Of a stretch of DNA of 12,698 nt, positions 329 to 12,698 are shown piece by piece. Every line of letters starts with the position of its first letter. Position 1 is the first letter of the stretch. Both the position numbers and the translations under genes were made by a program. This stretch comes from a virus, in UHGV virus genome UHGV-0271890; one strand, given 5' to 3'. Below the pieces are notes generated by a model, which searched no databases, was not told where the DNA came from, and saw only the letters and a program-made list of their open reading frames with translations.

Positions 329-329
329 T

Positions 330-406: not shown

Positions 407-411
407 ATTTT

Positions 412-487: not shown

Positions 488-491
488 ATTA

Positions 492-635: not shown

Positions 636-636
636 A

Positions 637-770: not shown

Positions 771-780
771 ATTTGTTGAG

Positions 781-856: not shown

Positions 857-915
857 CCTTTAAAGGATACTCGTAAGAACCCTTTAAGGGAGGGGCTAAA
901 TAGCCCTCTCAAAAT

Positions 916-993
916 TGGCGGTTACGAAGGGATTTGAACCCTCATCATCTCCCGTGACAGGGGAGTATTTTAACCAAATTAAACTACATAACC
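916..993 (-). tRNA. tRNA-Asp (anticodon GUC)
   Basis: Acceptor GGTTATG/CGTAACC, D-stem GTTT/AAAT, anticodon stem CTCCC/GGGAG with loop CTGTCAC, T-arm GAGGG-TTCAAAT-CCCTT, discriminator G, CCA encoded. Confidence 0.88.
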
Positions 994-998
994 TTTAT

Positions 999-1086
999 TG
1001 GTGTGCCGTGTAGGAGTCGAACCTACCGAGTCTCAATGACAAGGGATTTACAGTCCCCACCGCTACCATCTACGGGATAACGACAC
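999..1086 (-). tRNA. tRNA-Tyr (anticodon GUA), class II with long variable arm
   Basis: Acceptor GTGTCGT/ACGGCAC (one U:G), anticodon stem GGGGA/TCCCT with loop CTGTAAA, ~15-nt variable arm with GTC/GAC stem, T-arm GTAGG-TTCGACT-CCTAC, CCA encoded; 5' end and D-arm register uncertain. Confidence 0.75.
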
Positions 1087-1095
1087 ATTTAAATT

Positions 1096-1172
1096 TGGCG
1101 GTTAGTCAGGGATTCGAACCCTGTGCCATTCGCTTAACAGGCGACCGCACATACCTTATGTGCTTCCTAACC
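1096..1172 (-). tRNA. tRNA-Asn (anticodon GUU)
   Basis: D-arm GCAC-ATAAGGTAT-GTGC perfect, anticodon loop CTGTTAA, T-arm CAGGG-TTCGAAT-CCCTG, acceptor GGTTAGG/ACTAACC with 7:66 G:A mismatch, discriminator G, CCA encoded. Confidence 0.78.
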
Positions 1173-1183
1173 TTAATACATTG

Positions 1184-1250
1184 CCAGACCGTGTTTTTTT
1201 TTTTTCTTTTATCCGCAAAAAGTATTTTGTTGCTGAATACGGTCTTCTGC
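1184..1250 (-). ncRNA. Stem-bounded structured element, family member
   Basis: Closing stem AGACCGT/ACGGTCT (1186-1192 with 1239-1245) covaries with the other copies; contains a 13-nt homopolymer T-run (plus) and an internal hairpin. Confidence 0.4.
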
Positions 1251-1255
1251 AAATT

Positions 1256-1332
1256 TGGAGGCGGGTGCAGGAGTCGAACCTGCCGATACCATGCTAATGA
1301 GACATGTGAGACGCCCTTTCTCTATACCCGCA
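1256..1332 (-). tRNA. tRNA with CAU anticodon (second Met-type; possibly Ile2/lysidine or initiator)
   Basis: T-arm GCAGG-TTCGACT-CCTGC, acceptor 3' strand ACCCGCC pairing TGCGGGT (1:72 mismatch), anticodon stem CATGT/GCATG with loop CTCATTA (U37 unusual), CCA encoded; 5' boundary uncertain. Confidence 0.6.
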
Positions 1333-1343
1333 ATTCTTAATGA

Positions 1344-1417
1344 CCAGACCAAATCTCTTCTTTGTCCGATTTACCTTCAGATGAATAAGATTAAGTTTGC
1401 TGTAATTGGTCTTCTGT
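1344..1417 (-). ncRNA. Stem-bounded structured element, family member
   Basis: Closing stem AGACCAA/TTGGTCT (1346-1352 with 1406-1412); same conserved flanks; abuts the CCA end of tRNA-Glu. Confidence 0.4.
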
Positions 1418-1423
1418 CAAAAC

Positions 1424-1501
1424 TGGCGTTCCAGAAGGGATTTGAACCCTCAGATATCCACTTTGAAAGAGTGGTGACTTTACCATTTTGTCTACTGGAA
1501 C
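1424..1501 (-). tRNA. tRNA-Glu (anticodon UUC)
   Basis: Acceptor GTTCCAG/CTGGAAC perfect, anticodon stem CCACT/AGTGG perfect with loop CTTTCAA, T-arm GAGGG-TTCAAAT-CCCTT, discriminator G, CCA encoded. Confidence 0.88.
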
Positions 1502-1508
1502 ATTAATT

Positions 1509-1585
1509 TGGTCTCTGTTGGAGGACTTGAACCTCCGGCCTTACCGCCCCAAACGGAACGCTCTACCAAGCTGAGCTAAACAGAG
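1509..1585 (-). tRNA. tRNA-Pro (anticodon UGG)
   Basis: Acceptor CTCTGTT/AACAGAG perfect (C1:G72), D-arm GCTC-AGCTTGGTA-GAGC, anticodon loop TTTGGGG, T-arm GGAGG-TTCAAGT-CCTCC, CCA encoded. Confidence 0.85.
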
Positions 1586-1611
1586 ATAAACTTTTCAAAC
1601 TCTATGTAACC

Positions 1612-1641
1612 ACTTTAACATTATTTTTTAGTGATTGTCAA
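1612..1641 (-). promoter_or_regulatory. Candidate promoter for the tRNA array
   Basis: On the minus strand: TTGACA (plus 1636-1641), 18-nt spacer, TAAAGT (plus 1612-1617), about 25 nt upstream of the tRNA-Pro 5' end. Confidence 0.45.
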
Positions 1642-1710
1642 GAACTTTTTTAAAATATTTTTCAGTATCTTAGAAAAGCTCTCGTTTCGTTTCTATGTAG
1701 AACATATTAA

Positions 1711-1745
1711 AGGGTATCAAACACATTGTCAATACCCTTTTTGAA
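1711..1745. terminator. Hairpin terminator just downstream of the vWA gene stop
   Basis: AAGGGTAT...ATACCCTT 8-bp stem, followed on the plus strand by TTTTTGAAACTTTTT and preceded by an A-run on the minus strand; direction ambiguous, possibly bidirectional. Confidence 0.45.
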
Positions 1746-1750
1746 ACTTT

Positions 1751-3166
1751 TTACCAGATGTAACGGTCAATCATTACTGCTTTGAGCATTACGCTGATTG
1801 GGTCAAACTTCTCACCACCAAGCAGAGCTTTTAAAGTGGCTGGAGAGAAACCAGATACCATTGCTACACCGTTATCCTTAACAGATACTTCGCAAGTACC
1901 ACTACGGTTTGCTAAGTACCAGAATACCAGTTGTGGCATTTCGTATCCAGCTTTTTTGTACTTACTACGAATTGCTTCAAAGTTTGTACGACCGTTAGCT
2001 CCATCAACCTGATTGAACTCCATATCGGAGAAGATGATAAGCTTACTTGGCATATCTTTCTGAGTCAAGTTGTTTCTTTTACCTGTCTCAAGAATACGGT
2101 CAAAAGCAGCTTGTAAGTTAGTTGAGCCATATTCAACGTGTCGCATCACCTGACGATGACGGTTTCGTAAATCACCACTCAGTTCGATGAAGTGAGGGTT
2201 TGTTGAATAAACCATCAACTCATTCTTAAAGCAACCTGTATTACGTTCTGCTACATACAATGCAAGTGAAACACCAATATCAAGAGCAGTAATTGAACCA
2301 AAATTCACCCAAGACATTGAGCTTGAAACATCAGACATACACAAGATGTTTTCACCCTCTGCCATCCAGTTTGGTAGTGCTTTCCACTGCTCATTAGCAA
2401 CATCTGCATTACCATGCTTAACAGATTTAATTACATCGTATGGGTAAACAGCACCAGCATTAATCTTAGTCTCACCCTTTGATAAGGACTCGATGTAAGC
2501 TTTGTAGCGTTCTCCATCTTTACGGTTAAACAGTTTTTGGTAACGTGCAGCAGCAAGTGAAGGAATCTTACTGTAGTCAATCTTACCAAACTCATTAGCA
2601 GAGATTTTTTGCTCAACTGTATCAGATAGTGCAGACAACAGTGTGCGGTACTCTTTCTCACTCAAGTTGGCAAACTTGCAGAAACGTTTTACAAACTGCT
2701 TATGACGTGGTTTGACTCGTGGTAACCACTTAGCTGCCAAACCTGCTGTTGCAGGGTCTAGTAATGCTGCTTCTAAATGTTTGAAGGCATCTGTCTCGAA
2801 ACGAGTACCTACGAAGATTTTGAAGTCATCAAAACGACCAAGTTCTGCAATCTTATCCATAATGCGAAGAACCTGTGTAGGCTCTAAAACTTTATCTTCA
2901 ATTGCTTGAAGCAAAACAGTTCTGAAGGCTTTACGCTCACCCATACCTTCTCGTACATCTCGCATGTGAAGCAAAATACGAACTGCAACATCAACATCCT
3001 CACGCAAAGCTTTGTAGAACAGGTCTGGTAAGATTTCTACATTGCTACGGCTCGAACCAGCAGATTTGTAAAAGTCTACAAGAGCAGACATTGATGAAGT
3101 ATGGTTTACAGCACCATTTTCAGTTCGACCTGCATGAAGGTGCGCATGTTTAAATAATTCGCTCAT
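1751..3166 (-). CDS. vWA (MIDAS) domain protein, 471 aa; possibly Ro60/TROVE-like or DUF2828-like
   Basis: Long ORF with RBS; MIDAS motif D-x-S-x-S (ILCMSDVSSSMS, ~nt 2300-2340) followed by predicted alpha/beta segments; N-terminal ~270 aa likely helical. Family assignment is from memory. Confidence 0.8.
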   Translation of the reverse strand: MSELFKHAHLHAGRTENGAVNHTSSMSALVDFYKSAGSSRSNVEILPDLFYKALREDVDVAVRILLHMRDVREGMGERKAFRTVLLQAIEDKVLEPTQVLRIMDKIAELGRFDDFKIFVGTRFETDAFKHLEAALLDPATAGLAAKWLPRVKPRHKQFVKRFCKFANLSEKEYRTLLSALSDTVEQKISANEFGKIDYSKIPSLAAARYQKLFNRKDGERYKAYIESLSKGETKINAGAVYPYDVIKSVKHGNADVANEQWKALPNWMAEGENILCMSDVSSSMSWVNFGSITALDIGVSLALYVAERNTGCFKNELMVYSTNPHFIELSGDLRNRHRQVMRHVEYGSTNLQAAFDRILETGKRNNLTQKDMPSKLIIFSDMEFNQVDGANGRTNFEAIRSKYKKAGYEMPQLVFWYLANRSGTCEVSVKDNGVAMVSGFSPATLKALLGGEKFDPISVMLKAVMIDRYIW

Positions 3167-3200
3167 ATTTTACTCTCTTCTCTCATTTTGTTTGTTGATG

Positions 3201-3236
3201 TGACAGACTTTAGAGCAACTTTGTAGAGTCTGTCAA
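3201..3236. promoter_or_regulatory. 9-bp perfect inverted repeat between the two minus-strand genes
   Basis: TGACAGACT ... AGTCTGTCA separated by 18 bp; candidate operator or attenuator hairpin. Confidence 0.35.
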
Positions 3237-3248
3237 CACCTTTTAAAA

Positions 3249-3620
3249 TTATTTTTTGAGAGTCGCTACAGCAGAGAACGTTGGTTTGTTATCTGTCTGA
3301 GATTGACCACCACTATCAGGGGTCTTCTTAGTGTCTGCTGCAAGTGCTTTCATCTCACCTGCTGAGTGAGTAAAGATAGTTTTACCGACCTCAATCATAC
3401 TCTTGATGGTTACGTCATCTGTGTTTAACCCGAACTCTGCAAGCTTAGCCGCGTCCCTTGTAACAATCGCCTCAAACAACTTTGCAGCAAACTCAGCAGA
3501 ATTATCAATGGTCAGTTGAGCTTTTACAAGTGAGCTTTTGTTACGAGAGCCTTTTGGTCTTCCAGATGGGTTTCCAGACTGGCCTTTTTTAAACTGGCCT
3601 TTGTTTGTTCTGTTTTTCAT
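3249..3620 (-). CDS. GNPxGRPKG-motif basic protein, 123 aa (DUF5681-like, probable nucleic-acid binding)
   Basis: ORF with RBS AAGAGG 7 nt upstream of ATG; N-terminal KKGQSGNPSGRPKGSRNK motif recalled from phage proteins; upstream of and co-oriented with the vWA gene. Confidence 0.75.
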   Translation of the reverse strand: MKNRTNKGQFKKGQSGNPSGRPKGSRNKSSLVKAQLTIDNSAEFAAKLFEAIVTRDAAKLAEFGLNTDDVTIKSMIEVGKTIFTHSAGEMKALAADTKKTPDSGGQSQTDNKPTFSAVATLKK

Positions 3621-3795
3621 TGGTATGCCTCTTATAAGACCTCTTAAAAGGCTTTTAAGATAAAAGATAGATATCCAGAAAGATATCTGTTTAAATAGCC
3701 TTTTTAGAGGAACCTTTTAAGTTATCTTCTAAGTATTTATAAGCCTACACCTTGTCAAGTACTTTGTCAACAACTTTTTTAACTTGCAATAGTTC

Positions 3796-3824
3796 TTGAC
3801 TTGTTGTATGGATTGCTGTACCAT
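3796..3824 (+). promoter_or_regulatory. Candidate sigma70-type promoter for the plus-strand operon
   Basis: TTGACT (3796-3801), 17-nt spacer, TACCAT (3819-3824), in the divergent intergenic region with tandem TTGTCAA-like repeats. Confidence 0.4.
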
Positions 3825-3869
3825 CTTACTTAAAGCTGTAGGTCTGCCTTGTTCTACAAAGGAGACTTA

Positions 3870-4031
3870 ATGAGAAAATCAAATAAACCGAAGAAAGGTA
3901 AGAATACCAATCACTGTAAGGAATCAAAAAGGGTAGAATTAATCTACTATTCGTCCTCTGAAATTGGTCTGTACCTGTTCTTTCAAAATTACAGAAGACA
4001 AGAGGATTATCTATGTGTAGTTCCCAATTAG
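3870..4031 (+). CDS. Small lysine-rich hypothetical protein, 53 aa
   Basis: ATG at 3870 preceded by AAGGAG; the ORF-track start at 3849 is a TTG without RBS. Confidence 0.4.
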   Translation: MRKSNKPKKGKNTNHCKESKRVELIYYSSSEIGLYLFFQNYRRQEDYLCVVPN

Positions 4032-4246
4032 AAATCGCAGATATTATAGATTTATATCAAACTGCAAAGAGTCATGGCTATATAACCTCAATTGGAAAGA
4101 ATAGTCACTATGATGCTTTGACTGGAATGTATTTCAGGGCAATGGCTCAATCTAGTGAACAACACTTAATGGTTTCTTCCAGTGAGTTTACTTCGTTTCT
4201 CTATTGCAGCAAAATTATAAATCGCAGGAGAACTGAAAAATGTTAA
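4013..4246 (+). CDS. Hypothetical protein, 77 aa
   Basis: ATG preceded by AGAGGA; overlaps neighbours by a few codons. Confidence 0.45.
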   Translation: MCSSQLEIADIIDLYQTAKSHGYITSIGKNSHYDALTGMYFRAMAQSSEQHLMVSSSEFTSFLYCSKIINRRRTEKC

Positions 4247-4830
4247 CAGTAAGTTTTAATTACAATAGTGATGGCTCTGTATCAATTAATTCGCCATATG
4301 CAAATGACCTACTTAAAGAGCTAGTCAATCAGTGTGATAGAGGTCTTCACTATGTTCAAAATTCTTTTAAACAGAAGACTATTGCTAATAACTTGATGCG
4401 TGTAACAGTAACGGCATCGAATCCAAATTATGACTTTGATAGTGAAAGTCCGTACTCATTAGTTGCGCTTGGAGAGAGCAGCCAATTCAAACTTGTTTGC
4501 CACGACTCAGAAACATTCCTTAAGGTATTTTCCAACCTTATTCATAATAATAAGTACAGCTACGTCGATGGTAGTGTAAATTTCTATCCAGCAAACTATA
4601 CATGTTTGTTGGTTGATAATATGAGAAAAAGTAAGCAAGAGCCTACAGAAATTTCATTTGATGTAAACTCTAGCCCAGACGCAGAAACAAGTAAGAACTT
4701 TGATATGAGCTACGCATTGTCACTCAGTAAGAAATCCGAGTTCATTGATTATGTCAATGGATTTGGTTTTAAGTTTGATGAGAGTATGAATCTTAAAAAA
4801 CTTAAGAACCTACTTAAGACCAAAGCTTAA
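4240..4830 (+). CDS. Hypothetical protein, 196 aa
   Basis: ORF with AGGAG RBS; followed by hairpin terminator. Confidence 0.75.
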   Translation: MLTVSFNYNSDGSVSINSPYANDLLKELVNQCDRGLHYVQNSFKQKTIANNLMRVTVTASNPNYDFDSESPYSLVALGESSQFKLVCHDSETFLKVFSNLIHNNKYSYVDGSVNFYPANYTCLLVDNMRKSKQEPTEISFDVNSSPDAETSKNFDMSYALSLSKKSEFIDYVNGFGFKFDESMNLKKLKNLLKTKA

Positions 4831-4838
4831 GTGTGAAT

Positions 4839-4865
4839 AGGGGCTGATGCCCCTTTAACTATTTA
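4839..4865 (+). terminator. Rho-independent terminator-like hairpin
   Basis: AGGGGC-TGAT-GCCCCT stem-loop followed by a T-rich tract. Confidence 0.5.
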
Positions 4866-4877
4866 TAAGGATATTTA

Positions 4878-5249
4878 ATGAAAGCTAAGAGTGCAAAAGA
4901 CTTTTATTGCTTCCTACAATCCTATATCAATTCCGTGCAAAATGGTGAAAGGTACAACCTTAATGATGTTATCCCAACACCTTTGACATGGAGACTCAGC
5001 AAATGGCCTGAAGAAGATATTACACCAACAAGCGAACAGTGTACCTACAAACCTGAAATCAATATTCCAGATTCTGAGAACCTATTATACCCAATGTTCC
5101 ATATTGTTGGACTTGGAAGATTCCTTATGGATATCCAGTATGTAATTGGTAAAGGTTATAAGGTTAAAGGTATTGTTGTTGGTGATGTATCTCCGCATCA
5201 CAAAGGTTATTTTAGACTAAACGCACATTTAGAGGCTAAAAAGAAATGA
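4878..5249 (+). CDS. Hypothetical protein, 123 aa, paralog of the N-terminal domain of the next gene
   Basis: ORF with AAGGA RBS; shares a conserved block with the 5246..6379 product (FMDIQYVI vs FMDLQYAI, plus shared residues around W-P-E-x-D-I and Y-K-P). Confidence 0.75.
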   Translation: MKAKSAKDFYCFLQSYINSVQNGERYNLNDVIPTPLTWRLSKWPEEDITPTSEQCTYKPEINIPDSENLLYPMFHIVGLGRFLMDIQYVIGKGYKVKGIVVGDVSPHHKGYFRLNAHLEAKKK

Positions 5250-6379
5250 TTAAAGCAAAGACTTACCCAGACTTCAAAGAGTTTGTGAAGGGCTTCGTTG
5301 CAAATGTAAAGGCTGGTAAGAGATATGATTTTAGAACATATCAGGAGGCTATTTTACCGCTTACCTATAGTTCGTATTGGCCTGAAGCTGATATTGCAGA
5401 AGTTGAGAAGTTTGACTACAAACCAGACTACAAAGTTCCATTTAGTGATGAGTTGCTTTACAGCGTTGGTGCTCAAATGAGAACTTCTGACTTCTTCATG
5501 GATTTGCAGTATGCAATCATCAATGGTAAAGATGTTGACACAATTTACTGTGAATGGTTGGCAAGAGTTAAGCCGTTCTCAATGTTGAATGCTAAGTTGA
5601 AGGATGCTATTAAGCCACCAGCAATTACTCAGCAACCAACAGGTCAAACAGTCAATGAGGGTGGCACACTTACTCTAAGCATTCTAGCAACTAACGCCAC
5701 TGGATATCAGTGGAAGAAGGATGGTGAGGACATCCCTAGTGCCAATTCTGCAACTTACACAAAACAGTCAGTAGCACCTTCTGACGCTGGTTCATACACT
5801 TGTGTTGTATCTGGAGAGGGTGGAACAAGTGTTACCTCAGATACAGCAACAGTGACTGTGAACGCACTGCCTGTGATTACACAACAACCTTCTAGCCAGA
5901 CCATCAATGAGGGTGGAAACATCAACTTGGAAGTGACTGCAACTGGTGCAACTGGTTACCAATGGAAGAAAGATGGCTCTGACATTCCTTCAGCGACAAA
6001 TGCTGCCTATAGCAAGTCTGGTGCGCTGCCAGCAGATGCAGGTTCATACACTTGCGTTGTAACAGGTGCAGGTGGTTCTGTTACTTCTAGTCCTGCAACA
6101 GTTACTGTGAATGCACTTCCAGTAATCACTCAACAGCCAACCAATCAAGAAATCACTGAAGGTGAGACATTAACACTTAACGTTGTAGCAACAGGTGCAA
6201 CAGGTTATCAGTGGAAGAAGGGTGAGGAAGTCATCCCAGACGCAACTGCTGCAACTTACATCAAAGAAGGTGCAACCGCTGCTGATGCAGGAAGCTACAC
6301 CTGTGTAGTGACTGGTGCAGGTGGCTCTGTAACATCTAATGCAGCAACAGTTACAGTTAACCCAGCAGGGGAGGCGTAA
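5246..6379 (+). CDS. Protein with N-terminal paralogous domain and three tandem Ig-like domains, 377 aa
   Basis: ATGA start/stop overlap; three ~82-85-aa repeats, each with ITQQP...EG...ATGYQWKK...DAGSYTCVV...VTVN (I-set-like Ig signature). Confidence 0.85.
   Translation: MIKAKTYPDFKEFVKGFVANVKAGKRYDFRTYQEAILPLTYSSYWPEADIAEVEKFDYKPDYKVPFSDELLYSVGAQMRTSDFFMDLQYAIINGKDVDTIYCEWLARVKPFSMLNAKLKDAIKPPAITQQPTGQTVNEGGTLTLSILATNATGYQWKKDGEDIPSANSATYTKQSVAPSDAGSYTCVVSGEGGTSVTSDTATVTVNALPVITQQPSSQTINEGGNINLEVTATGATGYQWKKDGSDIPSATNAAYSKSGALPADAGSYTCVVTGAGGSVTSSPATVTVNALPVITQQPTNQEITEGETLTLNVVATGATGYQWKKGEEVIPDATAATYIKEGATAADAGSYTCVVTGAGGSVTSNAATVTVNPAGEA
5615..6370 (+). repeat. Three tandem ~250-bp in-frame repeats encoding Ig-like domains
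   Basis: Protein-level repeats are strongly conserved while the DNA has diverged at synonymous positions. Confidence 0.8.
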
Positions 6380-6843
6380 TGCAACTCTCAAGAAAAGGTT
6401 TAGACGCTATTAAGTTCTTCGAAGGTCTGAAGTTAGAGGCTTACGAAGACTCTGCCGGAATCCCAACAATCGGGTATGGGACAATCCGTATTGACGGAAA
6501 ACCTGTTAAGATGGGTATGAAAATTACTGCTGAACAAGCTGAACAGTATCTTCTCGCAGATGTTGAAAAGTTCGTTGCAGCAGTGAACAAAGCCATCAAG
6601 GTTCCAACTTCTCAGAATGAGTTCGATGCACTTGTAAGTGAAACATACAACATCGGTATCACAGCTATGCAGGATTCTACATTTATCAAGCGCCACAATG
6701 CTGGTAATAAGGTAGGTTGTGCAGAAGCTATGCAGTGGTGGAACAAGGTTACAGTCAAAGGTAAGAAGGTCACTTCAAACGGACTGAAAAACAGACGTAG
6801 AATGGAAGCTGACATTTATCTTGACAGTGTATATCCAAAGTAA
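6379..6843 (+). CDS. Lysozyme, glycoside hydrolase family 24 (T4/P22-type), probable endolysin
   Basis: N-terminal FEGLKLEAYEDSAGIPTIGYG has the E-x8-D-x5-T catalytic spacing of T4 lysozyme; overall resembles P22 gp19; TAATG start overlap. Confidence 0.92.
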   Translation: MQLSRKGLDAIKFFEGLKLEAYEDSAGIPTIGYGTIRIDGKPVKMGMKITAEQAEQYLLADVEKFVAAVNKAIKVPTSQNEFDALVSETYNIGITAMQDSTFIKRHNAGNKVGCAEAMQWWNKVTVKGKKVTSNGLKNRRRMEADIYLDSVYPK

Positions 6844-6853
6844 TATCTTCATA

Positions 6854-6880
6854 GGCTCCTTCGGGAGCCTTTTTATTTTC
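6854..6880 (+). terminator. Rho-independent terminator
   Basis: AGGCTCC-TTCG-GGAGCCT followed by TTTTTATTTT, immediately after the lysozyme stop. Confidence 0.75.
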
Positions 6881-6893
6881 TAAGGAGAAAACT

Positions 6894-7292
6894 ATGAAAC
6901 TTTGGGCTAGTGACTTTGGAACTTTTAAGTACACTCGCAATGGCTCAATGGTGAGAATCATTGGGAGTAACGTTGTTACAGTTGGGGATAGGGTACATAC
7001 AAGGTTTACTGTTGAGTTAGCTGAACTATCGCCTATTGAATCTGCTAACAATGGACTGTTCAAGTTTGAGACTTACCATGTAAATGAACACGGGCAGTTT
7101 AATACTCTAGGGGAAAGTGGTCTTGATATTATTTCAGAACACCCCTTGACAAGAGAGCAACTTGCAGGTTACTATAAAACCATTCTTGAAAGGACTTTGG
7201 CAACACATGAGCATGAGGCCAGATACCACATAGAACGATGTGAAGTTTTAAGAGCAAAAATCGAACAAGCAGAGAGAGGTTTTTATGAATAA
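6894..7292 (+). CDS. Hypothetical protein, 132 aa
   Basis: ORF with strong AAGGAG RBS. Confidence 0.75.
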   Translation: MKLWASDFGTFKYTRNGSMVRIIGSNVVTVGDRVHTRFTVELAELSPIESANNGLFKFETYHVNEHGQFNTLGESGLDIISEHPLTREQLAGYYKTILERTLATHEHEARYHIERCEVLRAKIEQAERGFYE

Positions 7293-7680
7293 TAGCAGTC
7301 ATATCCACGTTAAAGTTGATGTCAGTCGTTACAGTGAAAATGAAGAATTAGACCTGCAAGATGCTCTTCTATTTGAGAAGAATGGCAATCTGCATTTGCA
7401 TTTTGAAGGTACAAACACATATCTCCACAGATGTCGAGATGATGCCGATGGTTGCCCTGTTTTTGCTTGGTATAATTTAGAGTTTCCTCTTTATGCAATC
7501 CACTATCCAGATGGTGGAGAAGACTGGACAACTCAATCAATCTTTGATGAGCTTAATGGTGTTCCAGTTGAGCAAGAAGAGCAAGAGCCTGTTGAACTCA
7601 CCTTCACTTTTATCAAAGAAGAGAAAGTTGGTGATTTGTCAGTAACTGAAGCAATTCAAGTCTCACAGGTTATTCGTTAA
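7285..7680 (+). CDS. Hypothetical acidic protein, 131 aa
   Basis: ORF with GAGAGAGG RBS; overlaps neighbours by a few nt. Confidence 0.75.
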   Translation: MNNSSHIHVKVDVSRYSENEELDLQDALLFEKNGNLHLHFEGTNTYLHRCRDDADGCPVFAWYNLEFPLYAIHYPDGGEDWTTQSIFDELNGVPVEQEEQEPVELTFTFIKEEKVGDLSVTEAIQVSQVIR

Positions 7681-7973
7681 TGAGTAAAGTACAGGTTGTT
7701 TTCCCTATTTGTGACTTCTCACTAGAGCGTGAACTTGACCTGTACGAAGAAATTACTGACGAAATTATCTGGTCTGTTGTAGAAGAGGCTATCAAGAAAC
7801 TGTATGGTGGCCTCTTAAACCCATCAAGTAAGAAGTTAAGCACTAAGCAAGTAGCTGACCCATATGTTTCATATGATGCCTACAACAAACCTTTTGAGAA
7901 TACCTGCTTTGACCTTATGGTAGGTAATAACAAAGTCAACTATTTCTTCGTCAGAGAGTTTAACGATGAGTAA
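7680..7973 (+). CDS. Hypothetical protein, 97 aa
   Basis: TAATG overlap with the upstream gene. Confidence 0.65.
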   Translation: MSKVQVVFPICDFSLERELDLYEEITDEIIWSVVEEAIKKLYGGLLNPSSKKLSTKQVADPYVSYDAYNKPFENTCFDLMVGNNKVNYFFVREFNDE

Positions 7974-8310
7974 GCTCCATGTCACAGTGTACAAAAACTT
8001 CTCAGATATCAAAGAGTCTTTAACAAATAAGCTTGACTTACAACGTAAAAGACTCTTTTTAATGTACGACATAGACAACTACAACCATCCTAAAGAGTTT
8101 AACTACAAAGATGGTACAAAGGTTGTTGAGTTTGAAGATTCTGTAACGGTATATGTAAAATATGACTTACCAGCAAAGTACATAGGGGTGTTAGAGTATT
8201 ATATATTCAAACATACTGGTATGCGTGGTGAATCTGTCAAGATATCTTCTATAGAAGTTTTTGAGAAACCTAACACACAACTTAAAAAGTATTTAATGAG
8301 GAAACTGTAA
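7966..8310 (+). CDS. Hypothetical protein, 114 aa
   Basis: ORF with GAGAG RBS; small overlap with the upstream gene. Confidence 0.7.
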   Translation: MSKLHVTVYKNFSDIKESLTNKLDLQRKRLFLMYDIDNYNHPKEFNYKDGTKVVEFEDSVTVYVKYDLPAKYIGVLEYYIFKHTGMRGESVKISSIEVFEKPNTQLKKYLMRKL

Positions 8311-8891
8311 TGTCCGAAGAGCAACAGAATATCACTCCACAAGTGACACTAGTACAACACTTTGGAAATATTGAAGGGTGTATTGCACTTTTTCAACCAA
8401 GCATCAACTCTCCTGCAAAAGTCTGTAAGTTGACCATGAATGTTAACAACATCAGTGTTTGCCTTGTTGATGAAGTTCAATATTTCAAGTTCAATGACAG
8501 AGAGGTTGATGCTGCACTATTGAAGTATCGAGCAAGCCTCGAAAAAGATATTGACCATAAAGAACTTGTAACGCTGTTTGGTGACCTTCACAAGCTTCTT
8601 GAAAAGGTTATGAAGCGCACATACTACATGAACAATGGTTCAATCATCACCACTTTGATTTCGCCATGTATCTCAGAGCCAATTTTAACTGATGACGGTG
8701 GATACTACGTGGTAGCATCAGCAGACTCTGATTGGTGGATGAAGAATACAGCACTGAAGACGATTATCGAGGCTATCCGTGAACACATTCCTTCATTCAG
8801 CCCGTGGAAAGGTAAAAGTGATGATTTCATTGCACTATTGAGTGAAGAGAGTAACAAGCGCAGTGCATTACTGCCTAAAAAATACTCTTGA
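8310..8891 (+). CDS. Hypothetical protein, 193 aa
   Basis: ORF with GAGGA RBS; TAATG overlap. Confidence 0.75.
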   Translation: MSEEQQNITPQVTLVQHFGNIEGCIALFQPSINSPAKVCKLTMNVNNISVCLVDEVQYFKFNDREVDAALLKYRASLEKDIDHKELVTLFGDLHKLLEKVMKRTYYMNNGSIITTLISPCISEPILTDDGGYYVVASADSDWWMKNTALKTIIEAIREHIPSFSPWKGKSDDFIALLSEESNKRSALLPKKYS

Positions 8892-8916
8892 CCGAGTATA
8901 CAAAACTGATTATGAT
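8888..8916 (+). promoter_or_regulatory. Candidate internal sigma70-type promoter
   Basis: TTGACC (8888-8893), 17-nt spacer, TATGAT (8911-8916). Confidence 0.4.
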
Positions 8917-8946
8917 GGGAGCTATCGAGAGGTAGTTCCCTTTTTA
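8917..8946 (+). terminator. Hairpin plus U-tract (terminator or 5'-UTR structure)
   Basis: GGGAGCTA-TCGAGAGG-TAGTTCCC 8-bp stem (one G:U) followed by TTTTTAG. Confidence 0.4.
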
Positions 8947-8974
8947 GTTTCTAGATAAGAGACATGGTAAAAGA

Positions 8975-9193
8975 ATGAAAAAGTTAACTACAGTTGAAGA
9001 TTACTACAAACTTTCCCTGTTAGAACAGTATCGTAGAAGCCAGAATATCAGAAAATGCTATGGTAAACACGCTGAAGGTGACTTTTACCGTTGCTATGAT
9101 GCAGATTTAAAAGGTGTAACACCTAGAGGGAAAGTCCTGCAAAGACTTGTTGACCTTGAATGGAACAAACGATTGAGAGGGGTTGGAAAATGA
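8975..9193 (+). CDS. Hypothetical protein, 72 aa
   Basis: ORF with weak RBS; stop overlaps the next start (ATGA). Confidence 0.6.
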   Translation: MKKLTTVEDYYKLSLLEQYRRSQNIRKCYGKHAEGDFYRCYDADLKGVTPRGKVLQRLVDLEWNKRLRGVGK

Positions 9194-9693
9194 TTTACGA
9201 AGAAAGATACAAGATAGATTTTCAGGATACTCGCCACCACACTTCTTTAAGAGTGACGAAACCAAATGGAGATACCGGTATCATAGCACATTTTGGTGGT
9301 GATTATTGGTATGGCACAGGTTGCTTTGAAGGCTACAATCAAGAATACTTGAAAGCATTCTACAGAGACTTTGCAAACGACTACAACAGGGTTGTTGACG
9401 AAAAGAATAAATGTATTAAGCATGAACACCATGCCAGAGGCTGCCTAAGTATTGTTATGGTACTTGCGTTCTTCTTAGCAATGTTACTAGTAGTATCAGC
9501 AATTAGCTGCATAGCTCAAGACTTGACAATTACACAGATTACTACAAAGATACACGATATCTGGTACTTGTATGCTGTTCCTTTAGCTGGTATCATCATC
9601 TCACTAATGAGGTTCAGAGTTCATAAGAAACGACTTAAGGACTCAGAGATTAAACTTGAAGAGGTAAGTAAAGAATGCAACCTACAATTATAG
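9190..9693 (+). CDS. Membrane protein, 167 aa, two predicted C-terminal TM helices
   Basis: ATG at 9190 preceded by GAGGGG and overlapping the upstream stop (preferred over the ORF-track start at 9160, which lies inside the previous gene); hydrophobic stretches VMVLAFFLAMLLVVSAISCIA and YLYAVPLAGIIISLM followed by a charged tail. Confidence 0.65.
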   Translation: MIYEERYKIDFQDTRHHTSLRVTKPNGDTGIIAHFGGDYWYGTGCFEGYNQEYLKAFYRDFANDYNRVVDEKNKCIKHEHHARGCLSIVMVLAFFLAMLLVVSAISCIAQDLTITQITTKIHDIWYLYAVPLAGIIISLMRFRVHKKRLKDSEIKLEEVSKECNLQL

Positions 9694-9770
9694 CTGTATG
9701 TGTTCGTTTTGCAATCGCTGAAATGATTAACAAGGCAATCTTAAAAGATGCCTATGGAGAGACTAAGTAA
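9675..9770 (+). CDS. Candidate small hydrophobic peptide, 31 aa
   Basis: ATG preceded by GAGGT with ~9-nt spacer; MQPTIIAVCVRFAIAEMINKAILKDAYGETK; stop overlaps next start (TAATG). Not in the ORF track because it is below 60 aa. Confidence 0.3.
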   Translation: MQPTIIAVCVRFAIAEMINKAILKDAYGETK

Positions 9771-9994
9771 TGATTAAAACACCTGTACCAATTTTTGGAT
9801 TCCCTTCTATAGAAGAATTTAAAGTCTATCTTGACAAAAACTTCTACAACGAGCAGCCTGTAACACTTCTGAAGAGTGACTTATCAGAGCTTCTTGATAT
9901 GGTTATCAAGGCAACTTCTGAGAAGGAACCTGAGCAGAAAGCTGAGAAGAAGAATAGTAAGAAATCTGATAAGAAGACTGAAAAGTCTGAGTAG
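9770..9994 (+). CDS. Hypothetical protein with lysine-rich C-terminus, 74 aa
   Basis: ORF with GGAGA RBS. Confidence 0.6.
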   Translation: MIKTPVPIFGFPSIEEFKVYLDKNFYNEQPVTLLKSDLSELLDMVIKATSEKEPEQKAEKKNSKKSDKKTEKSE

Positions 9995-10047
9995 TAACTT
10001 GAGGGGTTACTTGATAGCCCCTTTGTAGAAACTTAGAAGGTAGCGAA

Positions 10048-10476
10048 ATGAAAGAACTTATAGGTAAAGAGCTTGACGTTGTAGATGCAAAGACACAGAG
10101 GTATATAGCTACTGTTAAGTTTCTTGGAATGAATGATGCAAGTGATGATTACCCTCTCAACTGCATAGTTTTAGATAAGTTTAAGGTTTGTGGTATTAAT
10201 TTTAATGAGGATAACTTTATAAGCTTTGATAAGGACGGTTTCTGGCGTGGTAAGAACCATCCTCAAGCAAATGAGTTTGATATGCGTCTAGTGATACCAC
10301 AAAAAGGTAAATCACAAAATGTAAAAGATATCCTTGTAGAAGCCTATGCAGAAGGTATAATAGATGTTGTGCATGATGTTGAAAAAGCTTTAAAGCTTGT
10401 TATGCCACATTTAGAATCTGGAAAGCTGACTTTAGAGATGTTTAATAGGGTTATTCGGAGAGCTTATGAAGGTTAA
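10048..10476 (+). CDS. Hypothetical protein, 142 aa
   Basis: ORF with AAGG RBS. Confidence 0.75.
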   Translation: MKELIGKELDVVDAKTQRYIATVKFLGMNDASDDYPLNCIVLDKFKVCGINFNEDNFISFDKDGFWRGKNHPQANEFDMRLVIPQKGKSQNVKDILVEAYAEGIIDVVHDVEKALKLVMPHLESGKLTLEMFNRVIRRAYEG

Positions 10477-10930
10477 AGAAGTCGTTCAAAAAGCAATGCT
10501 TGATAACTCAACTAAAGACGAAATGTACAAAGAGATTTGTGATAAGTTGAATTGTTCAAGACATGCTGCTAATGTTCTTGTACATTGTTTTATCTGGGAA
10601 TGCTCAGAGGCTTATATGCAATATGTAGCGTTTGAAAGTTCTCACTTACTAGGTGATGTAGAAGCTGGTGAGAAGCTAAAAGAACCTGAGATGAAAACAG
10701 TTCCTAAAGTTGGTAATGTATACCCTCTTAAAGATTTCAAGACTGGAAAGATTGTTGCAAAAGGTGTAGTAGAATCTGTTTATCACGATGGTAAATACTT
10801 ACTTAAAATATTTGAGTATGATAGCCACTACACACACTTATGTGGGATTACATTCTTAGTAACAGAAGAAGACCTCATTAAGAACAATGGCAACAAGTTT
10901 GCAGTCCCAGCTTACCAAGTTTTACGATAA
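10466..10930 (+). CDS. Hypothetical protein, 154 aa
   Basis: ORF with GGAGAG RBS; overlaps the upstream gene. Confidence 0.75.
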   Translation: MKVKEVVQKAMLDNSTKDEMYKEICDKLNCSRHAANVLVHCFIWECSEAYMQYVAFESSHLLGDVEAGEKLKEPEMKTVPKVGNVYPLKDFKTGKIVAKGVVESVYHDGKYLLKIFEYDSHYTHLCGITFLVTEEDLIKNNGNKFAVPAYQVLR

Positions 10931-10943
10931 TGGTGTGATAGAT

Positions 10944-11492
10944 ATGGAAAAAGATAACTTAAAAGAAGTTGAAGGTAACTACTTAGTACTTGACTGGAAG
11001 GATGTTCGGGAAGCACTCTCTGAAGAAAATCTTGACTGGTTCGAACAAATTATCTTTGCAGTACGGCATAACCGAGAAGTTGAAAATGGTAAAGAGCCAC
11101 TTGAAGGAATCTTTGTAGAAAGGTCTTATCCATTCTATGAAGACACTTTGCAGAAAGTTAAGATGTACTTTAAACAGAAGAACCGTAAAGTGGTCACTAT
11201 GGTATCTCTTGGTGGACAGAGTATGTCTGTGATGGAAGATATCAACCCTAAGAGACCGAGTAAAGGTGTTTGTATAAAAATCACAGGACATGAAGAGTAT
11301 ATCTCAGTGGCTGACTTTAGTGTGTTCTGTAATGGTTCTGCTGTCTTTAATGGGTTTCACTATGATATCCGAGTGTACCCAATCAAGGGAGATGATATCA
11401 TGATGCAGATATTCGATAACAATAATGGGTTCACTCATTTTTACCAGACAACTAAGTCATCATTGAAAACAGTTCTGGAAACACTGATTTAA
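10944..11492 (+). CDS. Hypothetical protein, 183 aa (alternative start 10887 gives 201 aa)
   Basis: In-frame ATG at 10944 avoids a 44-nt overlap with the upstream gene; RBS is weak for both candidate starts. Confidence 0.65.
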   Translation: MEKDNLKEVEGNYLVLDWKDVREALSEENLDWFEQIIFAVRHNREVENGKEPLEGIFVERSYPFYEDTLQKVKMYFKQKNRKVVTMVSLGGQSMSVMEDINPKRPSKGVCIKITGHEEYISVADFSVFCNGSAVFNGFHYDIRVYPIKGDDIMMQIFDNNNGFTHFYQTTKSSLKTVLETLI

Positions 11493-11503
11493 AATATCTT
11501 AAG

Positions 11504-11535
11504 AGCCTCCTTAATTGGGGGCTTTTTAATTTTTA
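11504..11535 (+). terminator. Rho-independent terminator at the end of the plus-strand operon
   Basis: AGCCTCC-TTAATT-GGGGGCT stem (one U:G) followed by TTTTTAATTTTT. Confidence 0.7.
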
Positions 11536-11599
11536 TAAAATTTTATCGGTTGTCCCAACCTCTGGGTCACCATCATATGTGAATAAAATATCTATCCTT

Positions 11600-12698
11600 C
11601 TTAACAACCTTCTTAATCTTACTCTCTATATATAGTTATATAGTACTATATAGTATCTTAGTAACTATCTAGTGGTCTTAATAGCCCCTCTGTATAACCC
11701 TTCTAACTAGCCCTCTAACAAGCCTTCTAAACACTCTTCTAACAAGCCTTCTTAACAACCTATACAATCACCTTAACCATCCCTCTACACCCTCTTAGAA
11801 GCTCCTATACACCTCTTAATCTCTATGTCAGCTATGTTACCCTCTATAGGTGTTCACTAGGTATTACTAAGCCTCTATATAGACTGTTTTAACAAACTTA
11901 ACAGGAATATCTTTACAGACCTTATCTCACAAGGTCTAACACGGTACTAACAAGGTATCTTATAAGCCTGTTTCTACCTGTATTTTTAAAAGACTGTCTA
12001 GGTAATTATTCAGAATTTTAAAATTTTTATAAAATAGGGTTATCAAGTCATTTTTTAGGGTCTTTGAAGGAACTGAAAAATATCTGATTAGGATGTATAT
12101 CTGCTTGGTAGCCCTTAACATCCCTGTAACATCCCCTTTGCAAAATTTTAAAATATCCTTAACAATCTCTTAACAGTTCTCACATCTTCTTAACAACTCT
12201 TCAAAGGTCTTAACAGTTTCTTAACAGAACTAACAAGGGCTTAACAGTTTTCTAACAAGTGCTGAATAGTCTTTACAGAGGCTTAACAGATGACTAACAA
12301 GAGCTAACAAGTTAATTTTAAAGAGTTATTTTGTTAAGATAATTAACAAGTTCCTAACAAGTGTTTAATCTTTTTAACAAGCTATTAACATGGTCACTAT
12401 CTCTTTTCTTATCGTTCCCTTTCCCTCTTAGTGATTCTCTTAACATACCTCTTAAAAGCTCTCTATAGCTCCTTGTAAGCTCTTTTAAGCCTCTTCCTAG
12501 TAATTACACCCCCAACTATGAAGAAAGCTCTTTATAGGGCTTTTCAGGAGCTTTTAAGGCTATGTCAAATGTTCTTACAAGGCTTTTACGTGGTCTTAAC
12601 AGAGATTTAACAAGGGGCTAACAAGTTGTTAACAAGTGCCTTAAAAGCATAACTATGTAGGGTTTGTTAAGAAATTGTTAAGAAAATGTTAAGGGGGC
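11600..12698. repeat. Non-coding array of ~30 direct TAACA(A/G) motifs in ~11-bp phase, with inverted copies at the right edge
   Basis: Hand count of about 30 plus-strand TAACA occurrences; most are in the YTAACARG context. Starts at 12597/12608/12619/12630 are exactly 11 bp apart; spacings between 12116 and 12386 are 9-11 bp or multiples. Inverted TGTTAAG copies at 12665, 12676, 12688; palindromes TTGTTAAGATAATTAACAA and TTGTTAACAA. No ORF of 60 aa or more on either strand. Confidence 0.8.

Follow-up and report, generated by a model that had tools for sequence, protein, structure and literature searches.

At the genome ends of bacteriophage T7, copies of the oligomer CCTAAAG lie in short-repeat regions (SRL and SRR) that were reportedly described by Dunn and Studier in 1983. 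We know of no agreed function for this array, nor of a packaging role having been established for it, and our literature search on the T7 CCTAAAG repeats returned primer matches only; what short-repeat arrays at T7-type terminal repeats are for is an old question, on which the locus reported here bears. The cosB R-sites of lambda, the pacL and pacR boxes of SPP1 and the pac hexamers of P1 are recognition sites of the small terminase, which are bound cooperatively and position the nuclease at a fixed distance. In the replication origin oriC of Escherichia coli, low-affinity DnaA sites form two arrays of opposite orientation, in which 9-mers are separated by 2 bp. Phages of the phi29 type use their inverted terminal repeats as replication origins, and the phi29 protein p6 recognises DNA shape and not sequence.

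Felix O1-like phages have seen wide use in Salmonella and E. coli typing, biocontrol and therapy. A small terminase is not known in Ounavirinae (PMC3185647; PMC4837284). Direct terminal repeats (DTRs) of about the size reported here have been described in relatives, at 581 bp by PhageTerm (PMC8303462) and at 608 bp by Bal31 and run-off sequencing (PMC4837284), and the DTR of UAB_Phi87 has been demonstrated experimentally (PMC4837284). Neither Whichard 2010 (PMC3185647) nor Bardina 2016 (PMC4837284) mentions the array of short repeats that fills this repeat, and the array itself appears to be undescribed.

The terminal repeat and its boundaries

The stretch of DNA analysed here, hereafter the window, is 12,698 nt long and is a fragment of a Felixounavirus (a Felix O1-like myovirus of the Ounavirinae). 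By end-to-end alignment to the repeat of the relative SPJ41 (90.6% identity), positions 12107–12698 (592 bp, plus strand) are identified as the right-end copy of a short exact DTR, and base 12698 as the right physical end of the virion DNA. The SPJ41 record holds an exact 613-bp repeat at both ends, with the first bases GGTAGCCCTTAACA and the last bases AAAATGTTAAGGGGGC; the latter are identical to the final 16 nt of the window, and the last base of the window is the last base of the SPJ41 DTR. Because this alignment is end to end and includes the last base, the region that a preliminary description of the window had flagged as a repeat array is assigned to the DTR, and the window edge, which that description had wished to see checked, to a genome terminus. 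The preliminary description did not recognise 12107–12698 as exactly the phage DTR, and the assignment reframes the functional options. The window carries the right-end copy only, and the two-ended repeat is read from the relatives.

The records SPJ41, ECP2307 and ZX4221 start at the base equivalent to position 12107, while GE_vB_7A begins 2 nt further in and UAB_69 has an annotated DTR at the same place with boundaries off by 2 nt on each side, a 2-nt disagreement between records over the exact cut positions. The repeat of the Hafnia phage SPARTY is 439 bp long. Most database records are arbitrarily permuted through the DTR region, and some annotate small ORFs within it.

Directly outside the left boundary lies the box AGGATGTATATCTGCTT (12090–12106, plus strand), invariant in nine phages of three genera and a candidate left cleavage or recognition signal. 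The sequence GTATATCTGCTT is also found in the Kolesnikvirus phage phiEa104, the left box being common to Felixounavirus and Kolesnikvirus, and the PhageTerm-oriented record of SPARTY begins at the base directly after it. Invariant boxes lie directly outside both DTR boundaries (GTATATCTGCTT^ on the left, ^TAGCATTTACGTAAC on the right), and the combination GTATATCTGCTT^ ... GGC^TA offers a practical terminus rule for Ounavirinae assemblies. The last gene of the window (10887–11492) is followed by an intrinsic terminator (11501–11526, plus strand), so transcription ends before the repeat region; a mirror-image terminator lies across the junction (L001, about 5680–5740), and together the two terminators shield the DTR region from convergent transcription.

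The TAACA array, its spacing and its conservation

The preliminary description had counted about 30 copies of TAACA in about 1.1 kb, far above chance, and the density is confirmed: the plus strand holds 30 copies in the last 1206 bp (11493–12698) compared to 21 in the whole of 1–11492, or about 25 versus 1.8 per kb. The degenerate form YTAACAR matched 40 times in the window, compared to 15.05 ± 3.59 (maximum 28) in 200 dinucleotide shuffles, and 29 of the 40 matches fell in 11601–12681. Within 12100–12698, where the array had first been placed, TAACA occurs 22 times on the plus strand and five times on the minus strand. The longer context YTAACARG, given earlier as the usual one, holds for 14 of the 30 copies; the remaining copies deviate from it, and the conserved core is (T)TAACA. 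The cluster is unique in a complete 89.6-kb genome, where 1-kb bins contained 27 and 22 copies in the DTR and 12 in the adjoining DNA, compared to a median of 3 and a next-best bin of 8. The heptamer TAACAAG was observed eight times in the DTR against an expectation of 0.07.

Among the 29 gaps between neighbouring copies, 12 were exactly 11 bp, three were 20 bp, two were 9 bp and one was 10 bp; under uniform random placement the 11-bp gap occurred 0.7 times on average and at most four times (2000 trials). For pairs within 60 bp of each other, local phase coherence at T = 10.4 was 0.57, compared to −0.04 under the uniform null and to 0.12 under a null that keeps the clustering and jitters gaps by ±3 bp (P = 0.0005). 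The global periodogram peaked at 10.5 bp (power 7.75), which was marginal against the jitter null (P = 0.10). Tandem Repeats Finder, as an independent check, returned arrays of period 11, 22 and 31. In the 11-copy cluster from 12160 to 12305 a period of 10.35 bp fits (resultant 0.94) and one of 11.0 bp does not (0.19), and the earlier wording "multiples of 11" should therefore read "multiples of about 10.4". Helical phasing as first claimed is accordingly retained as to its frequent 11-bp steps and given up as to multiples of 11, since the lattice is of about 10.4 bp.

The sites are distributed in several blocks. Eight extra TAACA copies lie in unique DNA upstream of the DTR (11602–11953, plus strand, at 11602, 11716, 11740, 11753, 11890, 11899, 11937 and 11948), the pair at 11937 and 11948 being part of an invariant block ACAAGGTCTAACACGGT..TAACAAGGT; on the far side of the repeat, relatives have few TAACA or none. 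Close to its left end the DTR carries a left-terminal site pair, CCCTTAACATCCCTGTAACATCCC (12112–12135, plus strand), whose TAACA copies at 12116 and 12127 are 11 bp apart and of which the first starts 9 nt from the left terminus; here GCCCTTAACAT mirrors GCCCCCTTAACAT of the bottom strand as read from the right terminus. An AT-rich palindrome, AAAATTTTAAAAT (12142–12154), follows within a conserved block TTTGCA...TTAAAATATC and is 100% complementary to 12015–12027. The central array (12158–12309, plus strand) contains 11 TAACA copies (12160, 12171, 12191, 12211, 12222, 12231, 12242, 12253, 12284, 12295 and 12305) on the 10.35-bp lattice, with Tandem Repeats Finder periods of 11, 22 and 31, and in its right half CTTAACAG and CTAACAAG alternate as a 22-bp unit. 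To its right, an inverted site pair, TTGTTAA and TTAACAA about GATAA (TTGTTAAGATAATTAACAA, 12331–12349), is one of two palindromic composite sites noted earlier, both of which are present; it lies in the longest invariant block of the DTR, and GAGTTATTTTGTTAAGATAATTAACAAG is invariant in 10 of 10 aligned phages. Four more copies (12344, 12355, 12375 and 12386, within 12343–12390, plus strand) share a best T of 10.40 with a resultant of 0.98.

The middle of the DTR is poor in TAACA and carries a second repeat family, AGCTCTTTTAAG or CTYTATAG-like, with a period of 10–11 (12456–12559, plus strand; Tandem Repeats Finder rows 12456–12495, 12467–12495 and 12526–12559), and the junction is enriched in the k-mers CTTTTAAG and CTCTATA. 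The four copies at exact 11-bp steps noted at the outset are present at 12597, 12608, 12619 and 12630 (12597–12634, plus strand), the last overlapping the other composite palindrome, TTGTTAACAA (12625–12634). The flip of strand at the right edge is likewise present, as three inverted sites (TTGTTAAGAAA three times; 12664–12693, minus strand, TGTTA at 12665, 12676 and 12687; Tandem Repeats Finder period 11 with 94% matches), the last of which ends 7 nt from the right terminus. This inverted block is kept in all genera, although in Mooglevirus, Suspvirus and Kolesnikvirus its terminal copy has degenerated to TTTACA.

In an alignment of three genera, 84% of the core columns were invariant compared to 55% of the other DTR columns, and one of 591 circular shifts of the site positions reached 84%; per-offset invariance was 0.77–0.95 at the five core bases and 0.36–0.64 in the flanks. 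As read from these alignments, selection is shown to act on the TAACA sites specifically, the DTR as such not being its target. The DTRs of Kolesnikvirus could be aligned over only 14% of the length of the window DTR and still have 21 copies in 439 bp, with gaps in phiEa104 of 11, 20, 20, 20, 9, 11 and 11 bp compared to 11, 20, 20, 11, 9, 11 and 11 bp in the window; the array is thus kept in Erwinia and Hafnia phages despite a DTR that is otherwise barely alignable. Phages of Salmonella, Escherichia, Shigella, Citrobacter, Erwinia and Hafnia all share an unaltered TAACA core. Five long indels separate the phages, each of 11 or 22 bp, one of them alignment-ambiguous (22/23). The general reading offered earlier, in which proteins bind cooperatively to short sites arrayed on one face of the helix, is consistent with both the phasing and the conservation footprint.

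Possible functions of the array

The array most likely builds a protein–DNA complex that recognises and cuts the genome ends for packaging, a reading to which we assign a probability of about 0.5; protein binding, the link to the terminase and the polarity of the nicks are what we infer in it. Replication-origin iterons, ParR-type centromeres and terminase recognition sites had been named as the three candidates, and the last now leads because the array fills the DTR and brackets both cut sites. The approximately 27 TAACA/TGTTA copies in the DTR and the eight just upstream would be sites for a sequence-specific duplex-DNA-binding protein, which would load head to tail along one face of the helix and shape the concatemer junction into a nucleoprotein assembly by which the terminase could locate and cut both DTR boundaries. 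The outermost sites, each beside a conserved outside box, face inward (5'-GGTAGCCCTTAACAT on the left, 5'-GCCCCCTTAACAT of the bottom strand on the right), and the same complex would place one nick at each boundary, in the top strand on the left and in the bottom strand on the right. The two 3'-OH ends would then prime fill-in or strand-displacement synthesis and the DTR would be duplicated, so that both daughter genomes would carry a full copy, as in the Watson-type model put forward for T7. The binding protein could be an unrecognised equivalent of the small terminase, because the phage group has only a recognisable large terminase.

In keeping with a terminase array, the outermost sites lie close to the cuts (9 nt from the left terminus, 7 nt from the right one) and the repeated short sites under selection share one helical face. 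Against this, an array of about 600 bp with about 35 sites is far larger than known small-terminase sites, and in T7, the model short-DTR phage with an analogous repeat array, a packaging role was, to our knowledge, never established. The insertion screen PhageMaP found insertions tolerated at most T7 genome-end positions, which also speaks against a packaging role. Three of the four genera have a degenerate form of the mirrored terminal motif, itself short, at the right end; the cut positions differ by 2 nt between records, and location in the DTR would fit any other activity at genome ends equally well, for instance a replication start, end protection or ejection. More speculatively, and with a probability that we consider low, the TAACA array would be the loading track of an unrecognised binder that replaces the small terminase in Ounavirinae and polymerises over the whole repeat, its inward-facing terminal sites setting both cuts and the filament acting as a molecular ruler of DTR length in quanta of 11 or 22 bp; in a wider form, TAACA tracks at 11-bp steps would mark the ends of unrelated phages too, which if true would imply a shared class of end-binding proteins, for example on phi29-like contigs with inverted terminal repeats (ITRs).

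Sequence searches of PHROGs, Pfam and the PDB returned no small terminase. Several proteins were considered and rejected as the binder: the SPJ41 ORFs upstream of the large terminase gene, which gave PHROG unknowns, the Pfam families DUF7217, DUF7338 and PD-(D/E)XK, and no PDB match; a 66-aa ORF directly upstream of that gene, acidic and helical, with only near-identical homologues; and an HTH_3 protein at 45.5 kb of SPJ41, which nothing ties to the array. Window ORFs near the repeat belong to PHROGs families without an assigned function, apart from an endolysin, an Ig-like tail protein and a Ro60-like protein. Sigma-70 promoters with TTAACA as the −35 element matched six times compared to 4.2 ± 2.2 in shuffles and were rejected for that reason; as to a non-coding RNA, Rfam gave sub-threshold matches only, on the terminator. 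A primase site, with TGTTA read from the template of the lagging strand close to the two 3' ends, was set aside because recognition of a single strand needs no 10.35-bp helical lattice. In the Felixounavirus Bas63, PhageMaP was directed at genes alone, and our literature search found no functional data on the array. As a phased, genome-unique and conserved element that brackets both cuts, the array offers a cis-element to mutate and a bait for the missing protein.

Of the alternatives to a packaging complex, the one that survives best, though we judge it unlikely, is that a protein of the phage or the host, bound to the array, would coat the ends of infecting DNA and would either open nearby AT-rich DNA in the manner of an iteron-like origin or activate replication and recombination from the ends in the way of phi29 p6. 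The helical phase of the direct repeats and the opposite orientation of their sub-arrays are consistent with this, as are the conserved AT-rich palindromes inside the DTR and just upstream, and its location in the DTR places the array at either end of each virion DNA. One phi29-like IMG/VR contig has seven (G)TAACA at 11-bp steps inside 92-bp ITRs, a match that came from a pattern-specific scan run without a control. The junction also holds ranks 2–6 of the least stable 40-bp windows of the SPJ41 genome; the least stable 80- and 150-bp windows, however, map to a divergent region near 37 kb, flanked by the primase/helicase and the polymerase gene blocks, where no clear iterons were found. The palindromes at 12014–12027 and 12142–12154, earlier proposed as a possible unwinding element, are real and conserved, as are the low-stability AT-rich segments of the junction, but other intergenic regions likewise include windows among the least stable, and an unwinding role for the palindromes is therefore conceivable at most. 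Classical replication iterons, as first suggested, fare poorly: the conserved core is 5–6 bp compared to 17–22 bp in classical iterons, no initiator-like gene was found nearby (PHROGs assigned the window ORFs to unknowns, lysis and tail), and no IHF consensus was found. The sole consensus DnaA box (TTATTCACA at 11578, minus strand) is not conserved in Mooglevirus or Suspvirus, and one per window is expected by chance.

We consider it doubtful that the array is a host-factor or end-management site, at which a conserved DNA-binding protein of the enterobacterial host, or else an early or an ejected protein of the phage, would guard the ends from RecBCD, pause or pace ejection or pair identical ends for concatemers. 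A winged-helix response regulator of the OmpR/PhoB type is a possibility for the host factor: such regulators bind direct hexamer repeats 10–11 bp apart, and a head-to-tail 11-bp geometry is typical of winged-helix dimers. The half-sites of PhoP (TGTTTA), PmrA (YTTAAK) and OmpR (GTTACA), however, each differ from TAACA by at least one base. A core unchanged across phages of six host genera is what a conserved host protein would impose, but a conserved phage protein would account for it equally, and the reading gives no reason for the array to stop exactly at the two cuts, its terminal copies mirrored. The terminal repeats of T5-like phages, also conserved, repeat-rich and non-coding, offer a parallel, and control of ejection by a host protein has been proposed for them (bioRxiv 10.1101/866236).

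That no specific protein is involved, the array being a by-product of slippage or acting through DNA shape only, with phased AA steps giving a curved or flexible end, is improbable. Slippage between 11-bp units would give the long indels of 11 or 22 bp, and perfect 11-bp TAACA tandem repeats are common in unrelated viral contigs (a scan of IMG/VR for four TAACA at 11-bp steps, run without a control pentamer, matched at least 120 contigs, mostly with perfect tandem repeats and from unrelated viruses); phased AA dinucleotides can also bend DNA. Slippage, however, gives homogeneous units, and here the genera share the 5-bp core but differ in the spacers, the lattice to which gaps of 9, 20 and 31 bp return is one of 10.35 and not of 11 bp, and Kolesnikvirus keeps the site positions though the surrounding sequence is barely alignable; curvature would need neither the C of TAACA nor mirrored terminal copies. 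Finally, a ParR/parC-type partition centromere, suggested by blocks of 11-bp direct repeats such as those of plasmid R1 parC, is effectively excluded by context, the phage being virulent, parM/parR-like or other partition genes being absent from the window and from the annotated SPJ41 genome, and the element coinciding with packaged genome ends.

Comparison with known systems

The repeats of T5-like phages (iss region) resemble the present locus in being conserved, repeat-rich non-coding DNA in and past the edge of a DTR, and are more conserved than the neighbouring genes (bioRxiv 10.1101/866236); they differ in extending over 10 kb with many families, proposed DnaA boxes and a proposed role as an ejection stop, compared to one 5-bp core in 0.6 kb here. 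The p6 complex of phi29 is, like the complex proposed for the array, a phased multimeric protein–DNA complex at both termini of a linear genome, and in the phi29-like contig (L095) the seven (G)TAACA of each 92-bp ITR read inward as at the Felix termini. The phi29 type, however, has inverted repeats, terminal proteins and protein-primed replication, whereas the Felix O1 type has direct repeats and terminase-cut ends. The oriC arrays share with the locus an 11-bp centre spacing, a head-to-tail oligomer, two opposite arrays and adjacent AT-rich DNA, but TAACA is not a DnaA box, of which the consensus has C at position 6, and only 5–6 bp are conserved.

The cosB and pac sites are likewise repeated short sites beside a cut site, several of them on one helical face or on bent DNA. 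They comprise 3–7 sites over about 100–200 bp with one cut site, compared to about 35 sites over about 1.1 kb with two cuts 592 bp apart in the window, and they have a small terminase (TerS), of which none has been identified in Ounavirinae.

The closest classical analogue is the CCTAAAG array of T7, and we regard the likeness as an analogy of layout and not as homology, because there is no sequence similarity. The motif differs, gaps in T7 are mostly 13 or 25–26 bp and thus not helical, most copies lie outside the DTR in T7 and inside it here, the orientation does not flip at the T7 terminus, and T7 has a known small terminase, gp18, unlike Ounavirinae. By our count, T7 has 11 CCTAAAG in nt 17–332, three of them inside the 160-bp DTR, and two more upstream of the right DTR. 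Common to both loci are a short exact DTR, an oligomer repeated in one orientation in and beside the repeat, non-coding DNA and the concatemer junction. Taking a T7-type array as at least 10 copies, mainly in one orientation, in and beside a short DTR, the window holds such an array with 22 + 8 forward copies.

A direct terminal repeat at the right genome end

The window is a Felixounavirus fragment that shares 94% identity with Salmonella phage Mushroom and numerous further phages, and its upstream gene content comprises nine tRNA genes, a Ro60-like gene, endolysin and tail genes. The tRNA genes (Ile, Met, Lys, Asp, Tyr, Asn, Met, Glu, Pro; 253-1585, minus strand) lie directly downstream of the gene for the 471-aa Ro60-like RNA-binding protein (phrog_850; 1751-3166, minus strand), whose homologue in Bas63 (gp130) has been linked to countering the Ppl defence system (PhageMaP preprint). 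Complete relatives carry a non-coding stretch of about 1.65 kb flanked by convergent gene blocks. Several records from independent laboratories begin at the equivalent of window position 12107 and hold a second copy at the opposite end. The ends of the relative SPJ41 are an exact 613-bp repeat with first bases GGTAGCCCTTAACA and last bases AAAATGTTAAGGGGGC. The latter are identical to the final 16 nt of the window, whose positions 12107-12698 align with this repeat end to end. Direct terminal repeats (DTRs) of 608 bp in UAB_Phi87, determined by Bal31 digestion and run-off sequencing (PMC4837284), and of 581 bp in Pr103Blw, determined with PhageTerm (PMC8303462), are documented, and the UAB_69 record has a DTR annotated at the same location, 2 nt wider on each side. 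From the SPJ41 alignment and the documented DTRs of the group, the region 12100-12698, which the preliminary description had singled out without recognising a DTR, is the DTR almost to the base, and the window edge, raised there as a possible terminus, is the physical terminus of the genome on the right. The DTR of this phage group is already known biology.

DTR length ranged from 569 to 614 bp among the aligned phages (window 12107-12698 with records L001, L002, L004/L003 and L006-L011), with indels of only 11 or 22 bp, 1-bp events aside. SPJ41 and Sf19 share one 22-bp insertion (GGTTGTTTACAAACACAACTT) that does not correspond to a TAACA unit. CDSs of 25-66 aa annotated as 'hypothetical protein' inside or across the DTR and array in UAB_Phi87, UAB_69 and Michonne are probably spurious, as the conservation pattern is non-coding.

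Counted from the left terminus, the first TAACA site starts at a distance of 9 nt, and the final site ends 7 nt short of the right terminus. Because the copies adjoining the right end are inverted (three TGTTAAG sites, 12665-12691), both ends begin alike when read inward 5' to 3' (left, GGTAGCCCTTAACAT; right, GCCCCCTTAACAT). An invariant box lies directly outside each boundary (left, AGGATGTATATCTGCTT^; right, ^TAGCATTTACGTAAC). GTATATCTGCTT is also found in phiEa104, and the PhageTerm-oriented Hafnia phage SPARTY (439-bp DTR; PMC8928762) starts at the base directly following it. The record of Erwinia phage vEam_PM_6 (PP079182) has a terminal repeat of 412 bp and opens (positions 1-9) with TTCCGATCT, resembling an Illumina adapter tail on a physical end; the conserved left box and the SPARTY repeat suggest that its true repeat starts 27 nt earlier. 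The left-end flank beyond the DTR varies among phages, with ACTTT(T/G)AAG-like repeats in place of TAACA, and in phage allfine a 23-bp tandem duplication (AACTTTTAAACTACTTCAAAATA twice; 5310-5359) directly adjoins the DTR.

Density, phasing and conservation of the TAACA array

The TAACA excess reported for the non-coding tail is real: 30 plus-strand copies lie in 11493-12698 compared to 21 in the other 11.5 kb, and YTAACAR has 40 matches in the window (29 of them within 11601-12681) compared to 15.05 +/- 3.59 in dinucleotide shuffles. The [C/T]TAACA[A/G]G context holds for about half of the copies, the remainder deviating. The strand flip and both palindromic composite sites are present as described, and in 12230-12309 the repeats form a 22-bp unit of alternating variants (CTTAACAG / CTAACAAG). 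Nearest-neighbour gaps were 11 bp (twelve), 20 bp (three), 9 bp (two) and 10 bp (one), compared to a mean of 0.7 and a maximum of 4 gaps of 11 bp under random placement (2000 trials); Tandem Repeats Finder independently returned arrays of period 11, 22 and 31. Local phase coherence was 0.57 compared to 0.12 in a jitter null that retained the clusters and shifted every gap within +/-3 bp (P = 0.0005). The central 11-copy cluster fitted a lattice of 10.35 bp (resultant 0.94) rather than 11.0 bp (0.19), the gaps of 9, 20 and 31 bp offsetting the 11s so that the sites stay on the same helical face. The global periodogram peaked at 10.5 bp, with only marginal significance relative to the jitter null (P = 0.10); phasing is thus a local property that is not kept up over the whole kilobase.

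That the array is a cis-element under selection is shown by five results. The array has no counterpart elsewhere in the genome: across the 89.6 kb of SPJ41, 27 and 22 TAACA/TGTTA sites fall in the 1-kb bins of the two DTR copies and 12 in the adjoining bin, compared to a median of 3 per bin and 8 in the next-richest bin; TAACA is the commonest DTR pentamer (20 observed, 1.06 expected), and TAACAAG occurs eight times (0.07 expected). It is conserved: in a 10-phage alignment covering Felixounavirus, Mooglevirus and Suspvirus, 84% of core columns were invariant compared to 55% of other DTR columns, a value equalled by 1 of 591 circular shifts of the core mask, and per-position invariance was 0.77-0.95 over the five core bases compared to 0.36-0.64 in the flanks. 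It persists: the 439-bp DTR of Kolesnikvirus (Erwinia and Hafnia phages) aligns to just 14% of the DTR of the window, yet carries 14 copies in forward and 7 in reverse orientation, spaced at 11, 20, 20, 20, 9, 11, 11 compared to 11, 20, 20, 11, 9, 11, 11 in the window. The five long indels between phages are quantised (11, 22, 22 (or 23), 22 and 11 bp), and the sites bracket both termini. GenBank records have at most automatic 'repeat_region' features here and the searched passages of the Felix O1 genome (PMC3185647) and UAB_Phi87 (PMC4837284) papers do not mention the repeats; the conserved, phased, terminus-bracketing array appears to be undescribed so far.

Other elements share the junction. 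Upstream of the DTR, the plus strand of a segment of about 480 bp (11545-12020) is strongly C-rich and G-poor (GC skew about -0.45), and the homologous segment shows the most negative 300-bp skew of the SPJ41 genome. This stretch lies between two occurrences of an AT-rich box that is conserved (TTTTTATAAAAT; 11531-11543 and 12021-12037). A triple TATATAG element (TATATATAGTTATATAGTACTATATAG; 11625-11666), conserved in three genera, has the lowest stability of any 40-bp duplex in the region, and no window of SPJ41 falls below it. The TAACA-poor middle of the DTR holds a separate repeat family of period 10-11 (AGCTCTTTTAAG / CTYTATAG; 12456-12559); CTTTTAAG and CTCTATA are repeated in the non-coding DNA on its flanks, and CTTTTAAG is also present in the divergent intergenic region at 37 kb of SPJ41.

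A putative role in packaging and its alternatives

The preliminary description's protein-binding reading probably holds, since position, phasing and selection on a 5-6-bp core together argue for a duplex-binding protein, which would contact the TAACA sites and load head to tail on one face. The most economical role (probability roughly 0.5) is to let the packaging machinery recognise and process the concatemer junction, as the array stays within the DTR and its upstream flank, has mirrored copies at both cuts and is shielded from transcription by flanking terminators on either side. The layout is that of a terminase site, with the TAACA sites as putative binding sites. The mirrored ends are compatible with the classical staggered-nick model for short DTRs, whose polarity is consistent on paper: one nick would cut the top strand at the left edge of the repeat and another the bottom strand at its right edge, and the two 3'-OH ends would be extended through the repeat, giving each daughter genome a full DTR copy. 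Only a large terminase (TerL) is recognisable in this group (PMC4837284; PMC3185647), and searches of PHROGs, Pfam and PDB sequences gave no small-terminase (TerS) candidate among the ORFs upstream of TerL. For a practically important phage group without a recognised TerS, the array would be a clean and testable handle on packaging.

An end-located replication or recombination complex is unlikely. The array lies at both ends of each genome, and the junction contains AT-rich palindromes, which are conserved, together with several 40-bp windows that rank among the least stable of the genome. For windows of 80 and 150 bp, however, stability is lowest at about 37 kb, between replication gene blocks, and the sole DnaA-consensus box is not conserved. 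Replication-origin iterons, as first suggested, fit poorly, the core being shorter than classical iterons and no initiator lying nearby, two points that also tell against the replication complex. The ParR-type centromere suggested alongside them is excluded by context, as neither the window nor the annotated SPJ41 genome carries partition genes and the phage is virulent, and primase sites were set aside because single-stranded DNA recognition requires no helical lattice. Somewhat less likely than the replication complex is binding of a host factor, or a function in end protection, ejection pacing or end pairing: the motif is unchanged in phages whose hosts span six enterobacterial genera, and winged-helix proteins of the OmpR/PhoB type typically bind with 11-bp head-to-tail geometry, but the consensus half-sites of PhoP, PmrA and OmpR are not exact matches to TAACA. 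Slippage or curvature with no protein is very improbable, given a fixed core amid diverged spacers and gaps that return to 10.35 bp rather than 11 bp.

Comparison with known systems

The array is a variant of short-repeat arrays known at phage terminal repeats, and precedents for the general phenomenon exist. Among the matches listed, the unrelated contigs L096, L124, L098, L138 and L047 also have TAACA arrays, with spacers that vary. Two related IMG/VR contigs of about 14 kb, picked by their TAACA pattern, have perfect inverted terminal repeats of 92 bp (L095; 1-92 and 14014-14105) and 49 bp (L111), with seven (G)TAACA at 11-bp steps from 14 nt inside each end; PHROG matches to upper collar connector, DNA polymerase, encapsidation protein and major head protein mark them as phi29-like podoviruses. 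The terminal repeats of T5-like phages likewise contain conserved non-coding DNA rich in repeats, and the low-affinity DnaA arrays of oriC share the 11-bp head-to-tail geometry and opposed orientation but differ in sequence. The closest functional model is provided by the small-terminase sites of lambda cosB and SPP1 pac, although these are far smaller and serve one cut. T7 has the closest layout, with 11 copies of CCTAAAG in nt 17-332 (three inside the 160-bp DTR, eight just past it) and two upstream of the right DTR; its array differs in motif, in spacing (13 or 25-26 bp) and in having no terminal flip. Insertions are tolerated at most T7 end positions, except close to the inner DTR boundary (PhageMaP preprint).
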